This document shows, in pieces, positions 1 through 44,805 of a stretch of DNA of 57,489 nucleotides. Positions within the stretch are counted from its first letter, which is position 1; each line of letters opens with the position of its first letter. The translations under genes and the position numbers were made by a program. The notes under the pieces were generated by a model, which was given only the letters and a program-made list of their open reading frames with translations, ran no database searches and had not been told where the DNA came from. This DNA comes from a virus (Duplodnaviria; Caudoviricetes): IMG/VR virus record IMGVR_UViG_3300031839_001226, positions 1 through 57,489 of that record. One strand, given 5' to 3'.

Positions 1-253
1 GCACGAGGCGCAGGAAATTGCTTGGAAGCGGGAAGGCAGCGCTGTATTCAAAGTCTGGCGCCGTCGTGCTTGCGGCAAGCGTCGCGCGCTTGGTAGCACA
101 GTTCCATTGATGCTCCCGAAGGACTTCCTTCAGTACCGGCTCATAGTGCCCATTGGCAAGCCGAGCGGGGCGCGTGCCTTCCTCGATATCGTTGATGATA
201 TCGTCGCCAAGGATGGACAGAGCCGTGTTTGCCACATCTGTTCGTGAGACCAT
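1..253 (-). CDS. Tail tubular protein A / head-tail adaptor (T7 gp11-like), 3'-truncated by window edge
   Basis: Not in the ORF track. Manual translation from ATG 253 (GGAG RBS upstream) gives MVSRTDVANTALSILGDDIINDIEEG...VLREHQWNCATKRATLA...PDFEYSAAFPLPSNFLRL, with the typical 'D-A/C-N-x-AL-x-x-LG', 'H-x-WN' and 'LP-x-x-F/C-LR' motifs; lies downstream of the capsid genes. Confidence 0.8.
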   Translation of the reverse strand, partial: MVSRTDVANTALSILGDDIINDIEEGTRPARLANGHYEPVLKEVLREHQWNCATKRATLAASTTAPDFEYSAAFPLPSNFLRLV

Positions 254-269
254 AGGGACTCCGCCATAG

Positions 270-294
270 AAAAAGGCTGCCCCGGAGAGCAGCC
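270..294 (-). terminator. Rho-independent terminator closing the Cas7-like cassette
   Basis: GGCTGC...GCAGCC stem (275-294) followed by a T-run on the minus strand (AAAAA at 270-274), directly after array 1. Confidence 0.75.
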
Positions 295-300
295 CTTCGT

Positions 301-380
301 GCCTTGTTTAGTGATGCTACGTCAGGTGAAGTGACGTGGAGCCATGCAGCGCAAAGTGCTGTTGCGCGTTGTGTCGCGAT
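301..380 (-). ncRNA. Pentamer-periodic array 1 (putative gapped guide RNA)
   Basis: + strand GCCTT GTTTA GTGAT GCTAC GTCAG GTGAA GTGAC GTGGA GCCAT GCAGC GCAAA GTGCT GTTGC GCGTT GTGTC GCGAT: 16/16 units begin G-Y. Starts right after the stop codon of 383..874. Confidence 0.85.
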
Positions 381-382
381 GA

Positions 383-874
383 TTATACCTTGAATGCTTC
401 CAGCGTCTTCGCGAGAGGCAACTGAGCGCCAGCCTTCGCGACTTGCTCTTCCAGAGACTTCACGCGGCCCGGCGACATGATTGAAGCAATTGCCCCAAAC
501 CCGCTGAGAGCCGCGTTGTGCTTTACCTTCAAGTCGTTTGGAAGCTTGTCGAATTCCTGTACGCACGTCAGACGCTTGACCGCGCGCTTTGCCTTACGGC
601 GGATGCCTTCGCGCGCATGCTCGGCGGTGTTCACCACTTCGATATCGTTCATGCGCTGGTAGCCGACACCACGCACATTGGCGAATGCTACCCCTTCACC
701 CTCCAGCCGATGAAGTGCTGACTGGAGGTTGGAACAGGCGCCTTCCACTTTCCTTCCGAGCAGTTCTGTCATCTGCTGAAACGAAACCACTTCACTCACC
801 GCCACCTTCTTGAGGCGATCGTACAGCATCCTGGTATCGATGCTCATTTCAAAGAGGGTCTTCTTGTCCGTCAT
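383..874 (-). CDS. Accessory protein of the Cas7-like cassette, probable N-terminal winged-helix domain
   Basis: ATG 874 with AAGGA RBS (885-889), 163 aa. Helix-turn-helix then 'FANVRGVGY' wing motif, basic helical C-terminus. The longer ORF-track start runs through the repeat arrays. Confidence 0.7.
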   Translation of the reverse strand: MTDKKTLFEMSIDTRMLYDRLKKVAVSEVVSFQQMTELLGRKVEGACSNLQSALHRLEGEGVAFANVRGVGYQRMNDIEVVNTAEHAREGIRRKAKRAVKRLTCVQEFDKLPNDLKVKHNAALSGFGAIASIMSPGRVKSLEEQVAKAGAQLPLAKTLEAFKV

Positions 875-884
875 CGGTGTTTGA

Positions 885-964
885 TCCTTGTCTTGACCTG
901 TCGCGTCTAGCCCGGCAATGCCCAGCCGAAAGCTGCGGTGCCTAGTAGGGCCGTGGGAAGCGAC
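885..964 (-). ncRNA. Pentamer-periodic array 2 (putative gapped guide RNA)
   Basis: + strand TCCTT GTCTT GACCT GTCGC GTCTA GCCCG GCAAT GCCCA GCCGA AAGCT GCGGT GCCTA GTAGG GCCGT GGGAA GCGAC: G at every 5th base in 14 of 15 units from 890. Confidence 0.8.
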
Positions 965-977
965 AAATGAAAATGAT

Positions 978-1055
978 GGAACCTTGTCTTGCTTTGCCTC
1001 GCACGGTGTTGTCATGCCGTGTGGTGCGAAGCCGAGCCGGGTCGAGCCGAACTCG
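978..1055 (-). ncRNA. Pentamer-periodic array 3 (putative gapped guide RNA)
   Basis: + strand from 981: ACCTT GTCTT GCTTT GCCTC GCACG GTGTT GTCAT GCCGT GTGGT GCGAA GCCGA GCCGG GTCGA GCCGA ACTCG: 15/15 begin R-Y, 13 consecutive G-Y. Confidence 0.85.
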
Positions 1056-1060
1056 ATATA

Positions 1061-1636
1061 CTACGCGGCCATCTGCTGCTCGGACCAGTTCACCCGGTCA
1101 ACAGCATAACGACCATAAAAGCCACCATTCTCAGGACGGAACCGCCCGATACCGATGAAATTTCCAGCCTCCTTCAAGTGAGCCTCAAACACGTCCGGCG
1201 TGATCGTTTCGTCCAGAATGTAGAACGTCACGTCGCCAGACCATTCACGGATGACGGGGAACTTGCGCTTCACGCGCTTGCCGCCGCCAGCCTTGCCGTC
1301 CGATGGGACAAAGAACACTTCGCCCGGAACGTTTTCCTTCTTGTCCGGCAGGATCAGCCCGTCAGTGACGAGGACGCCGGCCTTGAAGTGTTTCGTGTAA
1401 GTCGCCTTGCCTCGACCCTTGATCTGCATCGACAGGAACCGCGCGGCGGTCTCCAGCGATTTCTTGAACGCCATCGGCGGGATAAACACGTGCCCGTCGT
1501 CGGTTGTGCTCAGGCGTTCCGCCCAAGTCCTCATTTCGTAGTCGTCAGCCGCTTCCTTCTCGCGCTTCGGCGTGTCGTGATAGCGGGACTGCGAATACGG
1601 AGCTACGCTCCGGAGCGATGCAACTGCAATTCTCAT
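1061..1636 (-). CDS. Stand-alone Cas7/RAMP-superfamily-like protein (Vipr-like)
   Basis: ATG 1636 with GGAAGGA RBS, 191 aa. N-terminal strand 'IAVASLRSVAPY', 'GHVFIPPMAFKKSL' (cf. Cas7/Csm3 IPGSSxKG motif), C-terminal Gly-rich loop 'GNFIGIGRFRPENGGFYGRY'. Confidence 0.75.
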   Translation of the reverse strand: MRIAVASLRSVAPYSQSRYHDTPKREKEAADDYEMRTWAERLSTTDDGHVFIPPMAFKKSLETAARFLSMQIKGRGKATYTKHFKAGVLVTDGLILPDKKENVPGEVFFVPSDGKAGGGKRVKRKFPVIREWSGDVTFYILDETITPDVFEAHLKEAGNFIGIGRFRPENGGFYGRYAVDRVNWSEQQMAA

Positions 1637-1656
1637 AAGCAACTGTCCTTCCGTTA

Positions 1657-1739
1657 GGAACCATGTCTTGCCAAGCTACGCGCGGACGTGAGTTGTCGTG
1701 CCCTTTCACGCGTTGTCGTGCTTCGATGGAAGCAGTTGC
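1657..1739 (-). ncRNA. Pentamer-periodic array 4 (putative gapped guide RNA, in the 5' leader)
   Basis: + strand from 1660: ACCAT GTCTT GCCAA GCTAC GCGCG GACGT GAGTT GTCGT GCCCT TTCAC GCGTT GTCGT GCTTC GATGG AAGCA GTTGC. Same GGAACCWTGTCTTGC end as array 3. Confidence 0.8.
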
Positions 1740-1791
1740 TTTATCTTCCTTTTTGTGCGAGTTTGCAAGAGGTTTCGATAGTTTTTTTATC

Positions 1792-1845
1792 ATGGACGAT
1801 ATGGAAATCTACGGAACGTAGTGGAACACAACGGACAAGGACGGA
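1792..1845 (+). repeat. 10-bp-phased RYGGA repeats upstream of the XRE gene
   Basis: ATGGA 1801, ACGGA 1811, GTGGA 1821, ACGGA 1831, ACGGA 1841 (plus ATGGA 1792). Confidence 0.6.
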
Positions 1846-1848
1846 AAG

Positions 1849-2139
1849 ATGTCATTGGCGCTTGCCCCGACATACAAACCTGTGGAAATTGCGCCTGTGT
1901 TGACAGGTTCTCAGATTCGAGCGGCCCGCGCGCTCCTCAAATGGTCAGGCCAAGACCTGGCTGCCCGTTGTGGCGTCTCGTATCCCGCGATCCAGCGCGC
2001 TGAGAAGGCCGACGATATGCCGAACATGCAGGCGCGGAACCTTGCCGCAATCAAAGCCGCGCTAGAACGCGGCGGCGTACAATTTCTGGACGGCCCATAT
2101 TCCGGTGATGGCGGGCCAGGAGTCAGGCTTCGCGGCTAG
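1849..2139 (+). CDS. XRE-family HTH transcriptional regulator
   Basis: 'QIRAARALLKWSGQDLAARCGVSYPAIQRAE...ALERGGVQF...GPGVRL', a typical alphaproteobacterial XRE; divergent from the Cas7-like gene. Confidence 0.85.
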   Translation: MSLALAPTYKPVEIAPVLTGSQIRAARALLKWSGQDLAARCGVSYPAIQRAEKADDMPNMQARNLAAIKAALERGGVQFLDGPYSGDGGPGVRLRG

Positions 2140-2311
2140 CCGCGCTGAACTCCTTACCGACAGCAATCAGTTTGTCCCGTGCCCGTTTAAGGTTCGCTAA
2201 TTCCTCTTCCATGTTCTCAATGTCGTCACATATGCGTGTGAGCTTCTTCTGCATGATGAGCCGGATACAGGACCGCCAGTCATCCACATTGAGAAAATCG
2301 AAGTCAGTCAT
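2123..2311 (-). CDS. Hypothetical coiled-coil protein
   Basis: 62-aa ORF in late-operon orientation, GAGG RBS. Confidence 0.55.
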   Translation of the reverse strand: MTDFDFLNVDDWRSCIRLIMQKKLTRICDDIENMEEELANLKRARDKLIAVGKEFSAASREA

Positions 2312-2317
2312 GAGCCC

Positions 2318-2992
2318 TCACAGATATTCCGCATAGCATGCTTCCCATGCCTTGCGTCCGATGTGCTTGAACCGCAAAAGCGTGTCCGCGTAGCACTCGC
2401 CGCCGATCGCTCGCCAGCGCCGGCAGAACATGAAATCCTCGCCCCACAGGCTTGGCTCGCATCCTTCATCCGCGACGATCTCGGGAAGGAACAGCGCGCA
2501 GTTTTCCTTGTGGGCCAGACGGTCATCCACATAACGCAAATGCCGGTAGTGTTCGGTCATCTTCTCCGCACAGTTGCGGGAGATATGCAAGAAGCCACCG
2601 GGCAGCATGGCGACCTTCAAGAGCCCGTTATCGTCCGGCTCTTCGCCCTTGATGCGTTTCACGGGAAACCGTATGTCATCCTGCTTTAGAGGATAGACGC
2701 CGCCACAGACATCCTTGCCGTGGCTGACTAGGCGAAGGATCGCGTCATCCTCCCACCATATGTCGTCGTCAAGCATGACGAGATCGGTGCACTCGGAATG
2801 CAGGAAGTCGGCAACGAAGCTATCCCTTGCATGGGAGATCAGCGAGTTGCCGACCGTAAATCTGTACTCGCATTGCCAGCCGACGCGGCGTATTCCGTCC
2901 GCTGCCTGACGAAGGCAATGGAACGTTTCGATGTCAGCCTTTCCAGAGAAAGTCGGGCAGGCGATGTAGATGTTCCGCGCCGGCTGAGCCAC
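2318..2992 (-). CDS. Glycosyltransferase-like protein (GT-A fold)
   Basis: 'IYIACPTF', 'ISHARD', 'LVMLDDD' (DxD), 'GGVYP', 'GEDFMFCRRW', 'HIG' motifs. Confidence 0.7.
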   Translation of the reverse strand: MAQPARNIYIACPTFSGKADIETFHCLRQAADGIRRVGWQCEYRFTVGNSLISHARDSFVADFLHSECTDLVMLDDDIWWEDDAILRLVSHGKDVCGGVYPLKQDDIRFPVKRIKGEEPDDNGLLKVAMLPGGFLHISRNCAEKMTEHYRHLRYVDDRLAHKENCALFLPEIVADEGCEPSLWGEDFMFCRRWRAIGGECYADTLLRFKHIGRKAWEACYAEYL

Positions 2993-2994
2993 TG

Positions 2995-3240
2995 TTACGC
3001 CGCCTGCGTAGCGTGCGGATGATCCGGATACTTCACCCGTTCGTCGTAGTGCGGGATATCGGTGTGCTGCTCATGCTCCAGCTTGCACAGGGCATAGGCG
3101 GTTTCCCACGCCTGATCCGGATTGTCGAACTCACCCCGCTCGGATACGGAACCAGCGCCCGCGCCCTCTTCGACATAGCGCGTGATGATGTAGCGATCCA
3201 CTTTGCGAACGCGGTATTCCAGTTTGGTGATGACACCCAT
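2995..3240 (-). CDS. Hypothetical protein
   Basis: 81-aa ORF with AGGAAG RBS. Confidence 0.6.
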   Translation of the reverse strand: MGVITKLEYRVRKVDRYIITRYVEEGAGAGSVSERGEFDNPDQAWETAYALCKLEHEQHTDIPHYDERVKYPDHPHATQAA

Positions 3241-3307
3241 GGTAGTCTTCCTTTTGGCTTGAAAGCGACGGCCTCAACCGCCTATCCGCACCATGCGGAT
3301 TCCTTGC

Positions 3308-3336
3308 AGAAAGGGGCAGGCCCGAAGACCCGCCCC
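3308..3336 (-). terminator. Rho-independent terminator after capsid genes
   Basis: GGGGCGGGTC-TTCG-GGCCTGCCCC-TTTCT on the minus strand. Confidence 0.7.
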
Positions 3337-3351
3337 ATCCCCCGTCCCCGA

Positions 3352-3858
3352 TCAATCGATCGCGTATTCAATCTCCGCAGTGATCGTGCCGGCGCCGGAC
3401 GAGAGGTGTACGGCTCCTTCGATCACCACCTTGACATCCAGAAGCCCGCCGGGATCGACGGTCTGGCCGTTGACGTATTCCCACAGGCGCTTGCCCCAGT
3501 TGGCCTTGTCAGCAATGAATTCCTTCGTGCCGGCCGTGGAAGCGACGATGCCCGTGTTCAGCGCGTCAGCGTCATCCGTCATGGATTGCTTCGTGCTGGT
3601 CTTGTAGATGCCGATGCCCAGCGCGGCAGTGGTCGCACCCAGCGCATCATGCGCCAGTTTCGAGCCGCCGAAGATGCGGGCATTGGACGGAAGACGCGCC
3701 ATGAGATAGGTGGAGGTCGCGGAGTCGGCAGCGCCGGTTTCCACAGTCTCAACCCACTTGCGCGTGCGGCCACCACCCTCACCGGGGTCGGCAAGGACGG
3801 CAGGCGTGGACGTGAGGCTCGACATGATGCGCGAGCCGTAGCTGGTAACGATAGCCAT
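3352..3858 (-). CDS. Capsid cement/decoration-like virion protein
   Basis: Immediately downstream of the capsid gene, strong AGGAG RBS, beta-rich with 'ARLPSNARI'. Confidence 0.55.
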   Translation of the reverse strand: MAIVTSYGSRIMSSLTSTPAVLADPGEGGGRTRKWVETVETGAADSATSTYLMARLPSNARIFGGSKLAHDALGATTAALGIGIYKTSTKQSMTDDADALNTGIVASTAGTKEFIADKANWGKRLWEYVNGQTVDPGGLLDVKVVIEGAVHLSSGAGTITAEIEYAID

Positions 3859-3882
3859 TGTGGTTCTCCTTTCTGGCTAGGC

Positions 3883-4794
3883 TCAGATGTCAGTCGTCGG
3901 CGAGCCGCCCGGATCGCACTCGATGTATCCGACGCGCTTCTCTTCCATGCGGGTCGCCCCCACGGACATCTTCGCGTAGACCTGAGTTGCGTAGGACTTG
4001 TCGTCTCGCTCGGAGATGCGAGCCATCATGTCCGCGCCGAGAGCGAGAAGCATGCCCGACCTGGTGTAGAACGGCACCTTGTCGTCGCTGTTGCTGTCGA
4101 GGCCGATACGATTGCACGGAACGAGCGTGCAGCCGCCGACCATCGACACCTTGCCCGACACGAGCGGCAGGGCCGCGTTGTAGTCGCCGGACACGACACG
4201 CTCATCTTTGAGCAGAGACGAAATCTGGCGGGCGTTGACGACAACGAAGACTTCCTCGTCGGGGTCAACGTCGTTTGAACCGAGGAGCTTGCGCGCTTCG
4301 ATGAGCTTCGCCAGATTGAGTCCGGTATCGGCGGCGGAGACGCCAGGCCACACGGTCTGCACGTCAACGACCATGTTCGTGTCGAACGCGGTCTGGGTGG
4401 AGCCGCTTTCCCCGGTGTATGCGGTCGCATCGATGGCCGCGAGGATTTCGTCATCGATCGCACGACCGAGGGACATCATCGCAGCTTCGGTGTAGACCGA
4501 GGCCGGGTCGAGAAGCATGCGGATTTTGTCCTGGTCATCGATCAGGTCCGCCCACTCATAGTCGAACACCGACACGCGCCTGCGGGCGTGCGGGGTGTCC
4601 ATGCGAGGCGTGTCGCCATGCCGCGAGGTGCGGCGCTGTGCGGTGACGGCACCGATCTGGTCGAAGAATGCGTTCTTGCCAGTGATGGTCTCGGTGCGGA
4701 CAGTGCCGCGAAGCTTGCTGCCCTTCTGCTGTACGAGGTGGTAGACGTTTGCCTTGTACTGCTCGACAAACGCCGTCGTGATCTGGACAGACAT
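3883..4794 (-). CDS. Major capsid protein
   Basis: 'MSVQITTAFVEQY...VQQKGSKLR', 'DTPHARRRV', 'DKIRML', 'GATRMEEKRV' motifs of podoviral capsid family; synteny. Confidence 0.9.
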   Translation of the reverse strand: MSVQITTAFVEQYKANVYHLVQQKGSKLRGTVRTETITGKNAFFDQIGAVTAQRRTSRHGDTPRMDTPHARRRVSVFDYEWADLIDDQDKIRMLLDPASVYTEAAMMSLGRAIDDEILAAIDATAYTGESGSTQTAFDTNMVVDVQTVWPGVSAADTGLNLAKLIEARKLLGSNDVDPDEEVFVVVNARQISSLLKDERVVSGDYNAALPLVSGKVSMVGGCTLVPCNRIGLDSNSDDKVPFYTRSGMLLALGADMMARISERDDKSYATQVYAKMSVGATRMEEKRVGYIECDPGGSPTTDI

Positions 4795-4930
4795 GTCCTT
4801 ATCCTTTCAACGGTGAATTTTTGGGATGGTTTGTCGAACGTTGTCCGGCGAGCCGGGCGTTACATGCCCAACGTGGGCGGCGGCATGGCTACATGCTTTC
4901 GTGCGGGGCCTTGCGGCTTGTCCGCTAATG

Positions 4931-5119
4931 CTATTGCGTGACGACCTTCGGAGGACGGCCCCGGCGCTTTGGCTGGGGTTGTTCGTCACTCGGTTGGACA
5001 GTCACGAATTTAAGGAACGCTTTGGCGCGTTCGATGATGGCTTTTGCGTCCGGGTCTCTCACTCCATCAGGACGTGCGAGCTTGAGGCATTCGAGGCGGA
5101 TGGTGCTTTCATCCATCAT
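4931..5119 (-). CDS. Hypothetical protein
   Basis: 62-aa ORF, 'IRLECLKLA', overlapping stop/start with the upstream gene. Confidence 0.6.
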   Translation of the reverse strand: MMDESTIRLECLKLARPDGVRDPDAKAIIERAKAFLKFVTVQPSDEQPQPKRRGRPPKVVTQ

Positions 5120-5406
5120 GCAACCCTCCGCACTTTGGCGATGGCATGCAGTATCTTCCTCGGCCCACCCGCTTTGGACAAAAAACTACCCTTGCGTTCG
5201 GATACCTCGAAAACCGCGTCCTCCGTAGCTACACCATGGCGTTCTTCAAGCATCCGAAAAGCAGCATTCGCCGTCTGTATCAGGCTACCCAGAGGGCCCG
5301 ACCTTGCCTCCGCCTCATCAATCCTGCCGCAGGGAACATCAACGCCAGGAGGAAGGAAATCAGCCCACTGATAGGCTTCATCCTTTTCCGGTGCGCCGGC
5401 ATTCAT
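5116..5406 (-). CDS. Hypothetical protein
   Basis: ATGA-coupled in the head operon. Confidence 0.55.
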   Translation of the reverse strand: MNAGAPEKDEAYQWADFLPPGVDVPCGRIDEAEARSGPLGSLIQTANAAFRMLEERHGVATEDAVFEVSERKGSFLSKAGGPRKILHAIAKVRRVA

Positions 5407-6317
5407 CCGCCGAACCTCTGCTGATAGAGCCGCGTCATCTGTTCCGTCAGCCGCTTGTGATCGACATGGCTGGAATCGTGCAGTGCGGCATGATGCTCAC
5501 GGCGGAACGTAGCGATTGTCTCGTCCAGATTGGCGGGCGTGGGTTCCTGTTCCACCTTGTCGCCGACGAGCTGGCTTTCGCCCATGGTCTTCTCCGCAAT
5601 CGTGGCGAATGCCTTCACGAGCGCGGGATGATCGCCAAGCCCGGACTGGTCGAGGAACGCGGCGAATTCCGCACCTCCGTATTCCTTCACAGCCTTATTG
5701 GCGGCGGTCAGCTTCTGGTCGTATGCCCTGCCCCACTCTGACTTGAGTTGAGCGGCTGCGGCTTCCTGTGCAGCGGCGGATTCTTCCGCCTGCTTTGTCT
5801 GGGCCTGCGAGAGGTAGTCCAGTTGCCATTCGCGAAGAGCGCTGGCCTGTCGCTTGTTCAGGCCGAGTTCGTGCGCCTTGGTCGCGAACGTCTTGTCCAC
5901 CTCCTCGGAATATTCCATGCCCTCAGGGAGCTTTTCCGGCTTGGCGAATTCGTATCCCTTCGGATCATCAGGACGGCCGGCCGCTTTCCAGAAGCGATCC
6001 CATGCAGCCTGGTCGCCTTCCTTCGGGACTGGAACCTTGTCGCCGCCCATCATGCGCTCCAGATTGACGTAGGACTTCGATAGCCCTTCCCATGTCTGGA
6101 ACTTGGACAGTGACGGAGAGTTCTTCACGTCTTCCGGCTGCTTTTCCAGCCAGTCCTTGAACTCGAATTCCGTTACCGGAGGCGGAGTGGTTGCCTCGGG
6201 TGTCGGTGTCGTGGCTTGGGTTGTCGTCTCAGCAACGGGTGGCTGCTGTTCGGCCCCTGCGATTGGTGCAGTTGCCGCGTTGTCCGTCGTTTCGACGGGC
6301 GCGGATGCGTCGGTCAA
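5403..6317 (-). CDS. Capsid scaffolding/assembly protein
   Basis: Between portal and capsid; Pro/Thr-rich N-terminus, 'LSKSYVNLERMMG', 'GRPDDPKGY', 'LKSEWG', 'GLGDHPALVKAF'. Confidence 0.75.
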   Translation of the reverse strand: MTDASAPVETTDNAATAPIAGAEQQPPVAETTTQATTPTPEATTPPPVTEFEFKDWLEKQPEDVKNSPSLSKFQTWEGLSKSYVNLERMMGGDKVPVPKEGDQAAWDRFWKAAGRPDDPKGYEFAKPEKLPEGMEYSEEVDKTFATKAHELGLNKRQASALREWQLDYLSQAQTKQAEESAAAQEAAAAQLKSEWGRAYDQKLTAANKAVKEYGGAEFAAFLDQSGLGDHPALVKAFATIAEKTMGESQLVGDKVEQEPTPANLDETIATFRREHHAALHDSSHVDHKRLTEQMTRLYQQRFGG

Positions 6318-18040: not shown

Positions 18041-18559
18041 TCATCGTCCTCCCGGAGTTCCGGAGCGCCCGTGGTTTTCGTGGAACCCGTATTGGCGTTC
18101 TGCTGCGCGTCGTGCGCTTGCGGCCTCGTCTAGGCAGTCAAACATGCCGATATGCTTCAACTGCCCATCAAGATTTCGTATCTGCGCGCACCAACGGCCA
18201 GTCGCCTTAACCTTGTAGACGCCGCTTACACCGCTCCTATTCGTACACCTGAGCGCCTTGTTGCGCTGATTGATCTGACATGGAACCGACCGAAGATTGG
18301 CGATAGCGTTGTTGTGGCAATCACCGTTTATGTGATCGATATGTTCTGATGGCCATTCACCATGAACATAGAACCACGCTAGTCGATGACCACTGTATTG
18401 TTTCCCGTTGATCGCTATCCGTTCGTATCGCCAAGTTCTGCCGCCCGCTCGCTTGCCGGCACTCCCACTCCCGCTGCTACGCAACCAAGTGAACTCGCCA
18501 GTGACAGGATCGTAGTGGATGACCGATCTAAGCTCCTCCAGTGTCAAATCCGTCATCAC
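18041..18559 (-). CDS. HNH endonuclease with AP2 domain
   Basis: 'YDPVTGEFTW', 'HRLAWFY..GEWP..IDHING..HNNAIANLR', 'SGVSGV','HIGMFD'. Confidence 0.9.
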   Translation of the reverse strand: MMTDLTLEELRSVIHYDPVTGEFTWLRSSGSGSAGKRAGGRTWRYERIAINGKQYSGHRLAWFYVHGEWPSEHIDHINGDCHNNAIANLRSVPCQINQRNKALRCTNRSGVSGVYKVKATGRWCAQIRNLDGQLKHIGMFDCLDEAASARRAAERQYGFHENHGRSGTPGGR

Positions 18560-33894: not shown

Positions 33895-34349
33895 GCTGAC
33901 AACGAAACTGCTAATGCGCGCTGCCAGATTAGCTGAGCAGAAAGCCAGGATACAGGATGATCTGTCCGAGGCGTTCGTGGAGCGATACGGCACCACATAC
34001 TCTGACGTTGATGCCGATGGCATCATTGACATCCTAGACTATGGCGGCGGCGATATTGACCTCGCTCAATGCGACGCGATCATGACTGAAGCTGGCCATC
34101 CGCCTCTCAGTAGACGCGCCCTCTCTGAGGGAGAAGGCAAATGAGCATCATCATCACGAACGTCTCGCGCCACGAAGGCAACGCTCGCATCAGCGAGTAC
34201 ATCGTGCAGGTCGATGACAGCCCGATCATCGCCAGGTTCAAGCATTGGCGCCGTGATGGGCTTGCTGAGTGCCTACGCCTTGCGGCTACCGCTGTCGATG
34301 AGGCAGAGGCCCGCCGTCGCCCCCTCCCCCGCCAGGAGGACGACGGAAG

Positions 34350-34700
34350 ATGAGCCAGTCGCTACTCTCCCCGGCCGACGCCGCGCGCGTCCTGTGCATT
34401 TCCGACACGCAGCTCCGGGCGCTGACTTGCGCTGGGTCCATCCGGTACATCAATATCGGCTTAGGGGCGAAGCGCGAGACCCGCCGTTACCACCCGGACG
34501 ATCTCGCAGCATTTCAGGAGGCACGGGGATGTCAGTCTACAAACGTCCGGGCGCCGAAGTCTACAGCTACGACTTCCGGTGGCGTGGTAATCGATTTTCG
34601 GGGTCAACCGAATGCAAAACCAAGCGGGAAGCCGAACGCTTCGAGGAAGCCGAGCGGACCCGCGTCAAGTCGGCAGGGATCGACCGAAGCAAACCAATGA
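34350..34700 (+). CDS. xis: Excisionase-like HTH protein
   Basis: 'LLSPADAARVLCIS...LR.L...G.I.YINIG.G.KR..RRY...DL..F', overlapping int. Confidence 0.75.
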   Translation: MSQSLLSPADAARVLCISDTQLRALTCAGSIRYINIGLGAKRETRRYHPDDLAAFQEARGCQSTNVRAPKSTATTSGGVVIDFRGQPNAKPSGKPNASRKPSGPASSRQGSTEANQ

Positions 34701-35623
34701 CGTTCGCGGTCGCGTCAACGCTCTACTGGAACGAGGTCGGCCAGTTTCATCGAAATTCATCCGACACAAAACGCGCTCTTGGCTGGCTGCAAACCAACGT
34801 CGGGATGAACAAGCTCGTATCAGCCATTTCCGACGCCGAGATTGCCCGCCTCGTGGCGAAGCGACGCGGGGACGGTGTTTCCAACGCCACGGTAAATCGA
34901 AGCGTCTGCGAGCCATTGCGGGCCGTTCTGAAGCGGGCGGGGAAAACATGGAAGCAGTCGGTGCAAGACATTGACTGGAGAAGCCACGTCCTTAACGAAT
35001 CCCAGGAGCGGGTTCGGGAAGCTACGCCGGGGGAAGAGACGAAGCTTATAGCAGCGATGCGGCCCGACTACCGGCCGGTCGTGCAGTTCGCCATCCTGAC
35101 AGGCTGCCGGATGAACGAGATACTTGGGCTGAAATGGGCGAAGGTGGATTTCTTCAACCGCCAGTTCACCGTGTTCGGGAAGGGAGACAAATCCCGCACG
35201 ATCCCGATGACGCAAGTGGTCTTCGATCTGTTGACGGCCTTGCGCAAGCATGATGGCCCAGACGTGTTTACCTACCAGGCGACGAAGACGCGCGACGGCA
35301 AGGTGCGCGGCTATCGCTACCCGATCACCGAAAACGGGTTCAAGACGCAGTGGCGCCGGGTGAAGCGGGATTCAGGCGTAGAGGACTTCCGGTTCCACGA
35401 CACGAGGCATACTGCGGCGACGCGACTTGTGCGCGCGACGGGCAACCTCAAGCTCGCTCAGCGGCTTCTCGGACACACGGAAATCGCGACGACATCAAGA
35501 TATGCACATGTCACAGACGCAGACCTCCGCGCAGGGATGGAGGCCGCCAATCCCACGGGAAGTGCCACGAACGTTGCTTCACCCGATGATAAGGCTTTGA
35601 GAAATAACGGTAATGTGGTATGA
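34529..35623 (+). CDS. int: Tyrosine integrase
   Basis: ATG 34529 after AGGAGG; 'TGCR..E', 'GKG.K', 'FHDTRH', 'LGH', 'RYAH'. Confidence 0.95.
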   Translation: MSVYKRPGAEVYSYDFRWRGNRFSGSTECKTKREAERFEEAERTRVKSAGIDRSKPMTFAVASTLYWNEVGQFHRNSSDTKRALGWLQTNVGMNKLVSAISDAEIARLVAKRRGDGVSNATVNRSVCEPLRAVLKRAGKTWKQSVQDIDWRSHVLNESQERVREATPGEETKLIAAMRPDYRPVVQFAILTGCRMNEILGLKWAKVDFFNRQFTVFGKGDKSRTIPMTQVVFDLLTALRKHDGPDVFTYQATKTRDGKVRGYRYPITENGFKTQWRRVKRDSGVEDFRFHDTRHTAATRLVRATGNLKLAQRLLGHTEIATTSRYAHVTDADLRAGMEAANPTGSATNVASPDDKALRNNGNVV

Positions 35624-41046: not shown

Positions 41047-41628
41047 ATGGCTGCTTCTCGTTTATGCTCGATTCCGAACTGCAACAAGGCGGCGTTTTGC
41101 CGGGGTTGGTGTTCGGCGCATCACTGGAGATTTCGCAAATTCGGCGACCCGCTCGCTGGACCGCCTCTACGCAATCGTTGGGGTTCGCCCGTTTGCATTG
41201 TCGATGGCTGCAACTCGCCTCGGAAGAGAGGAAGTGGCATGTGTACCGCGCACACTTTGCGGAAGTGGCGGCATGGTGATCCGCTTTCTGGAAGAACGCC
41301 AGTAGGAGAGCCCGCCAAGTTCATCAAAAAGGTGCTAGCCACCCCTACGAAAGAGTGCGTTTCATGGCCGTATTCTCGGGGCGTAGACGGCCGGCCACTA
41401 ATCAATAATAATTCGATCAGCGACAGCACCAAGATCGTCTCCCGGATCATTTGCATCGCGGCCCACGGAGAGCCGCCATCCCCTGCCTATGAGGCGGCGC
41501 ACTCATGCGGGAACGGACACCTCGGGTGCGTGAACCCTCTACATTTGCGATGGAGGACGCATCGGCAAAACATGCAAGAGACTTTGATCCACCGAGAAGA
41601 AGGTAAAGGGCGATGGGCCGCGCAGTGA
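41047..41628 (+). CDS. HNH homing-type endonuclease
   Basis: Two 'C...C...G.C..H..R....GDPL' repeats plus 'AAHSCGNGHLGCVNP.HLRW.T...N'. Confidence 0.85.
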   Translation: MAASRLCSIPNCNKAAFCRGWCSAHHWRFRKFGDPLAGPPLRNRWGSPVCIVDGCNSPRKRGSGMCTAHTLRKWRHGDPLSGRTPVGEPAKFIKKVLATPTKECVSWPYSRGVDGRPLINNNSISDSTKIVSRIICIAAHGEPPSPAYEAAHSCGNGHLGCVNPLHLRWRTHRQNMQETLIHREEGKGRWAAQ

Positions 41629-42796: not shown

Positions 42797-42894
42797 CGGT
42801 ATTCTCCTGTTCATGTGAGAGCCGCGCTCGGAAGGCGGCTTGAGGTTTTCGGGTGGGTGTGCTTAGGGGTGGGCCGCCAACTGGAAAGCGGCTA

Positions 42895-44805
42895 ATGAAG
42901 TATCTTGCCTACGTGGACGGGCTACGCGCCATCTCCATTCTTTCTGTGGTACTGTACCACATCGGCGGAATTCCGGGATTTTCTGGCGGTTTCGTAGGCG
43001 TAGATGTATTCTTCGTAATTTCCGGCTATCTCATCATCGGCCAGATTGCGAATGACCTGACAAAAGACCGCTTTTCATTCTCGGAATTCTGGTCGCGCCG
43101 CGCCCTACGCATCCTGCCACCATACCTACTCGTCATCATTGCTTCCATGATCGCGGCGCAATACGTGCTCGTCACGGAAAAGGAGTTCACCGAATTTGGG
43201 GATCAGGCGCTCTATTCGGCCCTAATGGTCGTGAACCACTATTTTCTGGAACAGCAAGGATATTGGGATACCGGCGCCGAACTGAAGCCCCTGCTCCACC
43301 TGTGGTCTCTCGCTGTGGAGGAGCAATTTTACGTTGTCGCGCCGATCCTGCTTTTCCTCGGCTGGAGATTTCGGCGGTATGCGCTCCCCCTGGTTGCGAT
43401 CCTTTTCATCGCATCGCTTGCCGGAAGCGTCATGTACACAAACGTGGATGACAAGAACTATGCCTTCTACCTCATGCCGTTGCGTGCATGGGAGTTCATT
43501 GCTGGCGGAGCGGCCTTGCTCATTACGCGCGGCAATATGATGCCGAAGTTTATGCGAGACCCGCTCGGGGTTGTTGGTCTGGTTGCAATCCTGTTAGCGG
43601 TTTCCACATTCTCCGAAGACACCGCGTTCCCATCCTACAGCGCCATGTTGCCGGTATTCGGTGCCGTCGCGATTATTGCGTCCGGCTCGGATTCGCTTGT
43701 CGGGCGGCTGCTCTCGACACGCCCGATGGTCGGCATAGGGCTCGTCTCCTATTCATGGTACCTCTGGCACTGGCCGCTATTGTCGTTCGGCCGCATTTAC
43801 AATTTCGAGGAACAGATATTTGCCTTCGATCTCGCGATGGGCATCGCCGCCCTCGTTCTTGCTATTGGAACGTTCTTCCTTGTCGAACGGCCGATCAGGG
43901 ATTGGCGTCGTCGGCAAGGCGCGCTTGGCTGGCGTCCTGCCTATGTAGGTGGTGCAGTGGCCGCACTGATAGCCGTGGCAGGCGCTACTGTAGGATACGG
44001 CGCCCTGCCCAACGCCGCGATAGCAGCAGCTCAGGAGAGGCCCAAGCCGGCGACTGTCGAAAGACCCGTAACGAGAGGGTACATATTCGGCGATTCACAC
44101 GCCAGAACCGCATACGCCGGCTTGAGCCAGTACCTTGCCGAGCGCAAATCCAAGCTCATAGTTGCGACAGGGAGCGGATGCCCGCCTTTCACATGGGTTG
44201 TGATCCGAACGCCGACTGGCGGCTCATTCAAGAAATGCACGAACATAGTATCGAAGAAGCTCGGCGACGCAAAGGCAGACTACGCCATCCTTCACGCCAG
44301 ATGGAACATCTATGGCCCGCAACCCGAGATCATGCTTGGCGGGAAAACGATGCAGCGGCTGTTGGACCGGGAGGGAGTAGACCCGGCCGACCAAGACGCC
44401 TCATTCGTATCGAGCCTCAAGACCACGATAAGATGGCTGCGCAAGAAGGGCGTCAAGCGCATTCTCATCATCGGCCCCACCCCGGAATTTGTCCGCCGCA
44501 TTCCCGAATGCATTGCCAGAGCCGACCAGTACGGCAAGGACCGGGATGCTTACTGTTCCGTCCCCCGCGCTACGAATGATAGCAGGCGCGCGAAGATCGT
44601 TGGCCTATTGAAACAGGGAGCGGACGGCATGGAAGGCGTGCGCGTCGTGGACCCGATCAACATGTTCTGCGGCGATGATATCTGCCGCCCATACCATGGC
44701 GACGATCTCCTTTTCCGGGACGCAAACCACCTCTCGGAATCTGAAGGTGTTCCCCTTATGGTCGCAAGCATGAAGGACGATCTGGACTGGCTGGTTGGTC
44801 GATAG
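42895..44805 (+). CDS. Acyltransferase-3 plus SGNH protein (OafA-like surface polysaccharide O-acetyltransferase)
   Basis: 'DGLRA', 'GGFVGVDVFFVISGY', 'HLWSLAVEEQFY', 'SYSWYLWHWP', 'GDSHA', 'DANHLS'. Confidence 0.93.
   Translation: MKYLAYVDGLRAISILSVVLYHIGGIPGFSGGFVGVDVFFVISGYLIIGQIANDLTKDRFSFSEFWSRRALRILPPYLLVIIASMIAAQYVLVTEKEFTEFGDQALYSALMVVNHYFLEQQGYWDTGAELKPLLHLWSLAVEEQFYVVAPILLFLGWRFRRYALPLVAILFIASLAGSVMYTNVDDKNYAFYLMPLRAWEFIAGGAALLITRGNMMPKFMRDPLGVVGLVAILLAVSTFSEDTAFPSYSAMLPVFGAVAIIASGSDSLVGRLLSTRPMVGIGLVSYSWYLWHWPLLSFGRIYNFEEQIFAFDLAMGIAALVLAIGTFFLVERPIRDWRRRQGALGWRPAYVGGAVAALIAVAGATVGYGALPNAAIAAAQERPKPATVERPVTRGYIFGDSHARTAYAGLSQYLAERKSKLIVATGSGCPPFTWVVIRTPTGGSFKKCTNIVSKKLGDAKADYAILHARWNIYGPQPEIMLGGKTMQRLLDREGVDPADQDASFVSSLKTTIRWLRKKGVKRILIIGPTPEFVRRIPECIARADQYGKDRDAYCSVPRATNDSRRAKIVGLLKQGADGMEGVRVVDPINMFCGDDICRPYHGDDLLFRDANHLSESEGVPLMVASMKDDLDWLVGR

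Follow-up and report, generated by a model that had tools for sequence, protein, structure and literature searches.

A probable VIPR system with four arrays of pentamer repeats carried by a marine temperate phage

The virus record IMGVR_UViG_3300031839_001226 (Duplodnaviria; Caudoviricetes) comprises 57,489 bp with 58% G+C and looks complete; this entire stretch of DNA is called the window in the following. Its minus strand carries, between the major head gene and a tail gene, a cassette of two genes and four arrays of repeats with a period of 5 nt. We consider it very probable that this locus is a phage-borne VIPR (Viral Interference Programmable Repeat) system that consists of four guide RNAs (vrRNAs), the protein Vipr and a winged-helix accessory protein. 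The features of the cassette and of its borders, in coordinates of the window, are as follows:

2..253, minus strand: tail gene (phrog_394, PHROG match)
270..297, minus strand: intrinsic terminator closing the putative operon (12-bp stem, 4-nt loop, U5 run)
298..377, minus strand: array vr1, 16 pentamers; its 3' end is made up of the final two repeats together with the terminator
383..874, minus strand: vap-like accessory gene, 163 amino acids, with an N-terminal winged helix-turn-helix and a helical C-terminal domain
887..961, minus strand: array vr2, 15 pentamers, of which numbers 3-13 (897-951) fit DUF2924 genes if read by the 1-nt-skip rule
962-982, minus strand: U-rich spacer and tail after vr3
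983..1052, minus strand: array vr3, 14 pentamers
1061..1636, minus strand: vipr gene, 191-amino-acid stand-alone RAMP/Cas7-like protein
1637-1661, minus strand: vr4 tail and vipr ribosome-binding site
1662..1721, minus strand: array vr4, upstream of vipr, 12 pentamers
1740..1768, minus strand: promoter-like hexamers TTGCAA and GATAAA, 17 nt apart, just 5' of vr4 (assigned by eye)
1849..2139, plus strand: divergent HTH_3/XRE gene (Pfam HTH_3, E 5.4e-6)
3883..4794, minus strand: major head gene (phrog_3437, PHROG match)

Read on the minus strand, the order of these elements is the one given by an initial annotation of the same DNA (array 4, Cas7-like gene, array 3, array 2, winged helix-turn-helix gene, array 1 and terminator, with an XRE gene in divergent orientation), and the PHROG matches of the two bordering genes confirm the insertion between capsid-region and tail genes that was described there. 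The hairpin at 270-297 folds with -20.7 kcal/mol and is followed by UUUUUCUAU in the RNA fold; it was absent from the output of a simple terminator scan. The promoter-like hexamers are kept in a relative of the cassette, locus L001, and no Rfam match was obtained within positions 1-2400.

VIPR systems were presented in preprints of April-June 2026 (bioRxiv 10.64898/2026.04.26.720920; structures in 10.64898/2026.04.26.720927). According to these preprints, a VIPR system consists of the RAMP protein Vipr and usually one accessory gene, vap, and seven types are distinguished (10.64898/2026.04.26.720920). The vrRNAs contain 9-16 YNNGG repeats and a constant 3' tail (10.64898/2026.04.26.720920). 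In the SUSP1 structure, solved by cryo-electron microscopy (cryo-EM), one protomer is bound per repeat, the GGY triplet is flipped out and the dinucleotide NN is presented; D177 and R138 are reported to read G1 and G2 (10.64898/2026.04.26.720927). The published targeting rule is that one base is skipped per repeat in the DNA target; transcription is silenced, and the natural targets are rival mobile elements (10.64898/2026.04.26.720920). The preprint also allows ‘a related consensus’ and lists NNNGG, YNNNG and NNNNG as alternative repeats (10.64898/2026.04.26.720920). The initial annotation had pointed to a resemblance of the cassette to VIPR, and this was borne out by the homology described below; the kind of system, presented there as a candidate non-CRISPR RNA-guided system, had already been published in these preprints.

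A profile made from 114 sequences of the family of the 191-amino-acid protein matched the ‘SUSP1 Vipr protein’ of the PDB (36pp_D) with E 2.1e-12 over nearly the full length, the runner-up being noise (E 1.1), and the single sequence matched the same chain with E 2.9e-4 in a region that spans the thumb and the G-loop. Comparison of the profile with the Felixounavirus Vipr by hhalign gave a probability of 98.4% over 168 columns, end to end. An AlphaFold2 model of the protein (predicted local distance difference test, pLDDT, 97.3) had 106 PDB matches at E<=0.001 in a Foldseek search; among the matches listed, all were Cas7-type subunits (types VII, III-A/B/D and III-E), and the best one was 8yhe_J with E 2.3e-8 and a template modelling (TM) score of 0.54. 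The Cas7/RAMP fold proposed in the initial annotation is thus found in the predicted structure. The G-loop GIGRFRPENGG of the window protein aligns with GVGDWRPR of SUSP1, and D177, W178, R179 and R138 of SUSP1 align with R165, F166, R167 and F126 of the window. Sequence comparison and structure prediction thus support the assignment of the protein as Vipr, a stand-alone RAMP protein with a Cas7 fold. It belongs to the unnamed family phrog_4652, and neither Pfam nor PADLOC has a family for it. The family is a large one, with 2078 of 2162 candidate proteins matching at E<=0.001 and 1193 matching clusters at 50% identity in a representative library. No close Vipr was found by tblastn in deposited phages, where the best match had 30% identity and the Felixounavirus matches covered the C-terminus only. 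In the order of one metagenome-assembled genome (MAG) that carries a homologue, Vipr was present in one of 401 genomes, namely in that MAG itself.

The periodicity of the arrays was examined on the plus strand by recording, for each sliding set of 12 pentamers along all 57,489 bases, how many had G-pyrimidine at a given phase. Scores of at least 9/12 were confined to 286-400, 885-969, 971-1065 and 1665-1724; three of the four array sites reached 10-12/12, and vr4 was weakest with 9/12. Elsewhere in the window the maximum was 8 and the mode 1-2, and a mirror test for the GY of the other strand peaked at 8. The 5-nt periodicity noted in the initial annotation is hence unique to the four array sites, and the 16 consecutive GY starts reported for array 1 are indeed present on the plus strand, corresponding to a C on the sense strand that is fixed in all 16 repeats of vr1. 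Array sizes of 15-16 pentamers had been given; this is correct for vr1 (16) and vr2 (15), but vr3 and vr4 have 14 and 12, and all four arrays together contain 57 repeats. Within the sense-strand triplet, these repeats mostly have G (47%) or C (32%) at position 1, G (53%) or A (39%) at position 2 and C (95%) at position 3. The constant triplet in the clade of the window is thus relaxed to S-R-C (G/C, G/A, C); viewed on the plus strand, G is fixed in 95% of the units and a pyrimidine comes next. The closing two repeats of each array appear to form a constant tail; the tails of vr2, vr3 and vr4 share ..AAG ACA(A/T)G G(T/A)TC, and vr1 has ACAAGG. When orthologous upstream arrays of four related loci (including L001-L003) were aligned, invariant columns recurred every 5 nt and the NN columns differed.

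A 9-bp inverted repeat on the minus strand (1733-1741 with 1637-1645) brackets vr4 and ends just before the start codon of vipr; an equivalent pairing is present in L001 (2899-2906 with about 2993-3000). It could be a processing site, or it could couple the folding of vr4 to the translation of vipr. Since the window and L001 are too alike, the pairing shows no covariation.

That homologues of the protein would likewise be flanked by periodic arrays, as implied by the initial annotation, was found for 70 of 75 viral loci, and 78 of 86 loci yielded at least 15 pooled repeats. The pattern alone cannot fix the strand on which the RNAs are read, because G-Y on the plus strand equals R-C on the minus strand. 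Three relatives (L017, L019 and L024) have canonical GGC+NN arrays on the strand of the gene, and the first array of L017 ends with GCAAG ACAAG GTTCC, the tail of the window arrays. The combination of canonical repeats and a matching 3' tail in these relatives argues for RNAs that are read on the gene's strand. In 290 automatically found arrays (L001-L090 and the window), at least two consecutive AA dinucleotides were present in the last five repeats of 144 arrays and in the first five repeats of 6, so that AA-AA repeats look like a family-wide constant cap at the gene-sense 3' end, whatever the triplet. The orientation of the terminator for the minus strand agrees with the gene-sense reading. 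Judged from these sequence features, the array RNAs are most likely read on the vipr-sense (minus) strand, and the fixed letters GY of the initial annotation, correct as letters of the plus strand, would in the RNA most likely be the R-C of S-R-C. Some relatives have long tracts of about 1-1.6 kb of back-to-back arrays (L013 4055-5074, L017 3586-4942, L043 2256-3906 and L067 3557-4886), which resemble the multi-vrRNA or ‘staggered’ arrays described in the preprint.

The constant triplet (‘handle’) is not the same throughout the family. We collected 69 unique Vipr sequences, of which 62 with at least 15 pooled repeats were kept and 7 with too few repeats were dropped. The triplet was GGC for 17 sequences, CGC for 12, GAC for 9, GTT and CAC for 4 each, GTC for 3, CTC, AAC and AGT for 2 each and ATT for one; in the remaining six sequences, among them the clade of the window, no base reached a majority at position 1 or 2. 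The residues at positions 124, 126, 165 and 169 (numbering of the window protein) were compared with the triplet, in counts that are uncorrected for shared ancestry: all 34 sequences with G at position 2 had R165, as did 3 of the 15 with A at position 2, the others having F, S, V, Q or Y; K124 was present in 28 of the 34 sequences with G at position 1 and E169 in none of them, and of the 18 sequences with C at position 1, 14 had R124 and 11 had E or Q at 169. The Vipr of the window combines R124 and E169, typical of C, with R165, typical of G, and this combination fits the mixed S-R-C handle. We regard it as a lead from sequence comparison, not as established, that the constant triplet varies by clade and tracks residues of the thumb and the G-loop. 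The further-reaching proposal that the handle has at least nine forms (GGC, CGC, GAC, CAC, GTT, GTC, CTC, AAC and AGT/ATT) that are set by a few residues, taken together with a role of vr2 as a broad-spectrum guide against DUF2924, is tentative, and we hold it to be slightly less probable than its opposite. The diversity of the handle may already be covered in figure S17 and the data files of the preprint.

The second gene of the cassette was described as a wHTH gene in the initial annotation, and the model of its product (pLDDT 91) does contain an N-terminal winged-helix unit (helix-strand-helix-helix-strand-strand), followed by four helices. The Foldseek matches were weak (best E 8.8e-3) and were all winged helix-turn-helix DNA-binding regulators; Pfam, PHROG and PADLOC have no family for the 163-amino-acid protein. 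It has 56 homologues, one of which, in Mesorhizobium, adjoins a Vipr homologue, and among 91 loci, the window included and L085 and L090 being one place, 49 have a vap homologue downstream of vipr. A longer open reading frame (ORF) of 210 amino acids that runs into the arrays finds no support in the homologues, which have 160-169 amino acids. The divergent XRE gene is kept only beside the window, L001 and L003, that is in 3 of 91 loci, L001 and L003 being the closest relatives. It matches the PADLOC Control_protein family (restriction-modification controllers) weakly (E 3.7e-4) and, to judge from its sequence, may be a local controller, possibly of the VIPR promoter.

Targets of the four guides were searched with the 1-nt-skip rule. 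No self-target was apparent in the window, the best sites having 6-7 of 12-16 NN, equal to the scores under wrong skip rules, and 563 kb of fetched loci contained no match above wrong-skip and reversed controls. Exact 1-nt-skip patterns gave nothing in IMG/VR for vr1 (14 and 10 NN), vr2 (13 NN), vr3 (10 NN) and vr4 (10 NN). A 10-NN core of vr2, however, was found in 6 IMG/VR contigs, as compared to none for the same core read backwards and none for three other 10-NN cores. The eleventh NN of vr2 also matches in five of the six contigs (the sixth has 10), resulting in a block of 11 consecutive matching NN that adjoins the constant tail on its 5' side. The skipped bases differ between the contigs and sit on codon wobble positions of a gene on the opposite strand (motif RLAYRIQELVYGG), in which the site encodes the conserved stretch RLAYRIQEL(V/A)YGG of DUF2924 (PF11149, E 1e-53; phrog_11806). 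The DUF2924 site spans 33 bp, and in its ELAYG variant one NN is mismatched. The six DUF2924 homologues have pairwise identities down to 42%. A gene for a large serine recombinase (Resolvase+Recombinase+Zn_ribbon_recom) follows directly after the DUF2924 gene in the two places examined; in these two contigs and in a third one, the site is near the end of the record. In the target records the 1-nt-skip rule gave 11/15, and every other rule, guide and reversed control gave at most 8. When the 11-NN pattern of vr2 was searched with at most 2 mismatches in 401 genomes of one class, 27 genomes matched at 32 places, as compared to one match for the backwards control, and all 10 of the 10 genome places that were fetched fall in DUF2924 homologues. 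The window has no DUF2924 homologue, and no function of DUF2924 was apparent from a listing of the literature that mentions it.

The probability that the vr2 match arose by chance was estimated at about 1 in 100 after several tries; this is a rough estimate that assumes about 10^11 searchable positions (the size of the database being an assumption) and allows for the extra NN and the wobble phase. We favour, with some reserve, DUF2924 as the natural target of vr2, as suggested by the sequence match. With vr1, nothing was found in 10 related or target records at up to 3 mismatches, and at up to 2 mismatches one of 391 genomes matched, as compared to 0 for the control, which is the control level; vr1, vr3 and vr4 did not match the records that hold the vr2 target. 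An 11-NN match of vr1 in a tamB-like gene is regarded as probably due to chance, the other NN matching in 0 of 5 and the skipped base being at codon position 1. It is located at 2001-2032 (minus strand) in L091 and L092, two identical metagenome contigs in which a BamA/TamA-like gene adjoins.

Among the published systems, the type II VIPR of SUSP1 and of a Pseudomonas fulva prophage come closest to the cassette. They share with it a homologous stand-alone Vipr of about 190-200 amino acids, a two-gene core of vipr and vap that has vrRNAs of 9-16 pentamers on both its upstream and its downstream side, what looks like a constant 3' end of these vrRNAs, and a phage context without cas genes; moreover, the vr2 match of the window agrees with the 1-nt-skip rule and places the skipped bases at wobble positions. 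The window differs from type II by its S-R-C triplet in place of GGY and by R165 and F126 in place of D177 and R138 of SUSP1, by the two arrays between vipr and vap, by a tail of two constant AA repeats and G(T/A)TCC without a predicted pseudoknot, by a vap without detectable similarity to that of Felixounavirus, and by its predicted target, a module of DUF2924 and serine recombinase; neither ‘integrase’ nor ‘recombinase’ appears in the main text of the preprint. VIPR systems with the alternative repeats NNNGG, YNNNG and NNNNG resemble the window in combining a relaxed constant part with an unchanged 5-nt period and a variable dinucleotide. In contrast to these, the best-kept letter of the window is a C (95%), the adjoining purine is A in 39%, and there is no invariant G. 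Class 1 Cas7 subunits (type VII Cas7, type III Csm3/Cmr4 and III-E gRAMP) have the RRM/RAMP core, the thumb and the glycine-rich loop in common with the window protein and form polymers along guide RNA in steps of constant length, but sequence identities are 9-18%, and each step covers 5 nt, 3 of them flipped out, in VIPR as against 6 nt with 1 base flipped in Cas7. A class 1 CRISPR-Cas effector was rejected as an explanation, the Cas7-like fold being all that is shared: as the initial annotation had noted, CRISPR repeats and other cas genes are missing, with no CRISPR-like array detected in the window by TRF and none of the 76 window ORFs matched by the Cas models of PADLOC.

The homology and the fold of Vipr, the anatomy and polarity of the arrays, the linkage of vipr, arrays and vap, and the vr2 match carry our assignment of the locus to VIPR. 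A number of findings weigh against it. The commonest triplets of the 57 repeats are GGC (14), GAC (10), CAC (8) and CGC (7), a pattern that departs from strict GGY, and the residues that correspond to the reported readers of G1 and G2, D177 and R138 of SUSP1, are different here (R165 and F126). The vap of the window and that of Felixounavirus have no sequence similarity (probability 1.2%). The array tails have no convincing conserved structure or pseudoknot (fold z-scores of -1.1 to -2.3, no Rfam match), and a scan for consensus promoters found none and did not call the hexamers at 1740-1768. As regards the guides, no targets of vr1, vr3 and vr4 were found in the exact-pattern searches of IMG/VR, of the 13 variable NN in vr2 the initial two mismatch, and the vr2 matches all lie in homologous genes and therefore count as one independent event. 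Guides of the relatives (316-317 automatically extracted) matched neither the local loci nor the vr2 target records; the extractor produced false positives and missed the vr2 of the window. Finally, transcription, processing into vrRNAs, filament assembly, silencing and the biological role are carried over by analogy with the published system. With respect to the triplet, the preprint admits a related consensus and alternative repeats, and strict GGY is thus not needed for membership in VIPR.

Other explanations of the locus have to be considered. The guide RNAs might be transcribed from the plus strand, antisense to vipr and vap, with repeats of G-Y plus three variable bases (the published ‘YNNNG’ format) and a 5'-terminal conserved motif; the locus would then still be a VIPR system. 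On this strand a G is fixed in 95% of the units and followed by a pyrimidine, which is closer to the published invariant G than R-C is, and the vr2 match fits either strand because the same dinucleotides are displayed. However, relatives of the same family have canonical GGC+NN on the gene's strand together with the shared terminal motif, the AA-AA end repeats are polar relative to the gene (144 versus 6 of 290 arrays), and both the promoter-like hexamers and the one good terminator are oriented for the minus strand. RNAs of the plus strand would have to begin within the terminator and extend antisense into coding regions. We hence regard a plus-strand origin as improbable. Even less credible, to a degree that we hardly reckon with it, is the assumption that the periodic tracts act at the level of the DNA, where the winged-helix protein or some other factor would bind or bend them, and that the RAMP-like protein is otherwise employed. 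A winged helix-turn-helix protein is encoded inside the locus, and the array RNAs are predicted from the sequence; on the other hand, the RAMP-like protein is related in sequence to a Vipr whose structure was solved in complex with an RNA of this kind, the arrays follow vipr (70 of 75 loci) and not vap (about half), and their constant letters covary with residues of the Vipr thumb and G-loop.

The system could also be a VIPR whose natural targets are genes of the host or of the phage itself instead of rival mobile elements, in which case the match of vr2 to DUF2924 would be a coincidence. Such a role would be compatible with the 11-NN core match of vr1 to a chromosomal tamB-like gene in two identical metagenome contigs, with three of four guides that have no mobile-element target in the searches made, and with the homology of the six viral vr2 matches, which reduces them to one independent event. 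The tamB-like match, however, does not extend to any of the 5 NN outside the pattern and has its skipped base at codon position 1 instead of the wobble position, and the number of genomes matched by vr1 (one of 391) is the control level. A self-target of the window is not apparent either (best 6-7 of 12-16 NN, as under wrong skip rules), whereas the vr2 match runs past the searched core and is wobble-phased. Targets of this kind are accordingly unlikely in our opinion, though less so than a plus-strand origin of the RNAs.

For the favoured minus-strand VIPR system, we propose the following sequence of events. Transcription of one minus-strand operon would begin at a promoter near 1740-1768 and stop at the terminator (270-297), and the transcript would be cut into four vrRNAs. 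Vipr protomers would then polymerise along each vrRNA, one per pentamer, by homology with SUSP1; the constant triplet would be flipped out, and the two variable bases would be presented. The initial annotation had assumed that one protomer binds each pentamer, grips the triplet and displays NN, which agrees with the cryo-EM structure of SUSP1 and applies to the window protein by homology only. The NN would pair with double-stranded DNA that holds the same dinucleotides with one skipped base between them, and the bound filament would block transcription. In the case of vr2, binding to the DUF2924 stretch would silence DUF2924 along with the serine recombinase downstream and thereby the integration/excision module of a rival temperate element.

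The carrier of the cassette is, with high probability, a temperate phage from the sea that has the VIPR system as a moron between its head and tail genes. PHROG matches in the window include the small and large terminase subunits, portal/adaptor, major head, tail and internal virion proteins, endolysin, O-antigen acetylase and integrase, the latter being of the tyrosine type (PF00589). Between the cassette and the head gene there are a gene for a 224-amino-acid protein (2318-2992, minus strand; phrog_1574, function unannotated, E 4e-16) and three small ORFs, none of which has a Pfam match. Elsewhere, the phage encodes the O-antigen acetylase as a further moron (42853-44805, plus strand; phrog_6705, E 8e-157), the tyrosine integrase and two HNH endonucleases (34214-35623, plus strand; 18041-18559, minus strand; 41047-41628, plus strand), and much of the region from 19 to 29 kb has no PHROG match. 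A megablast search of positions 1-6000 against deposited phages gave no match. Metagenome contigs from four runs of three studies (seawater, marine and estuary) had no differences from positions 1-2400 of the window where they overlap, which suggests a wide distribution of the phage in marine and estuarine waters; one listed run may be the window's own sample. Because the contigs of the four runs are identical to the window, they are uninformative on the turnover of guides. RNA-type runs were absent among the 15 listed runs that hold the window sequence.

VIPR as a kind of system is already known from the preprints, and the locus is a member of a large, uncharacterised branch that leaves the known picture of VIPR unchanged. 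VIPR stands for RNA-guided DNA binding with a non-contiguous code and has been proposed as an ancestor of CRISPR effectors, and the locus represents a clean and compact marine example of it. The vr2 match provides bioinformatic support for the 1-nt-skip rule in a system in which the triplet is not GGY. If the DUF2924 target is true, it would tie VIPR to the competition over integration modules, and vr2 would be a broad-spectrum guide against a whole class of rival temperate elements, the phage itself using a tyrosine integrase. If the relation between triplet and residues is true, there would be a protein-RNA handle code that is readable from sequence and perhaps can be re-engineered, and the natural handle variants would be a source of information for building orthogonal pairs of Vipr and vrRNA.

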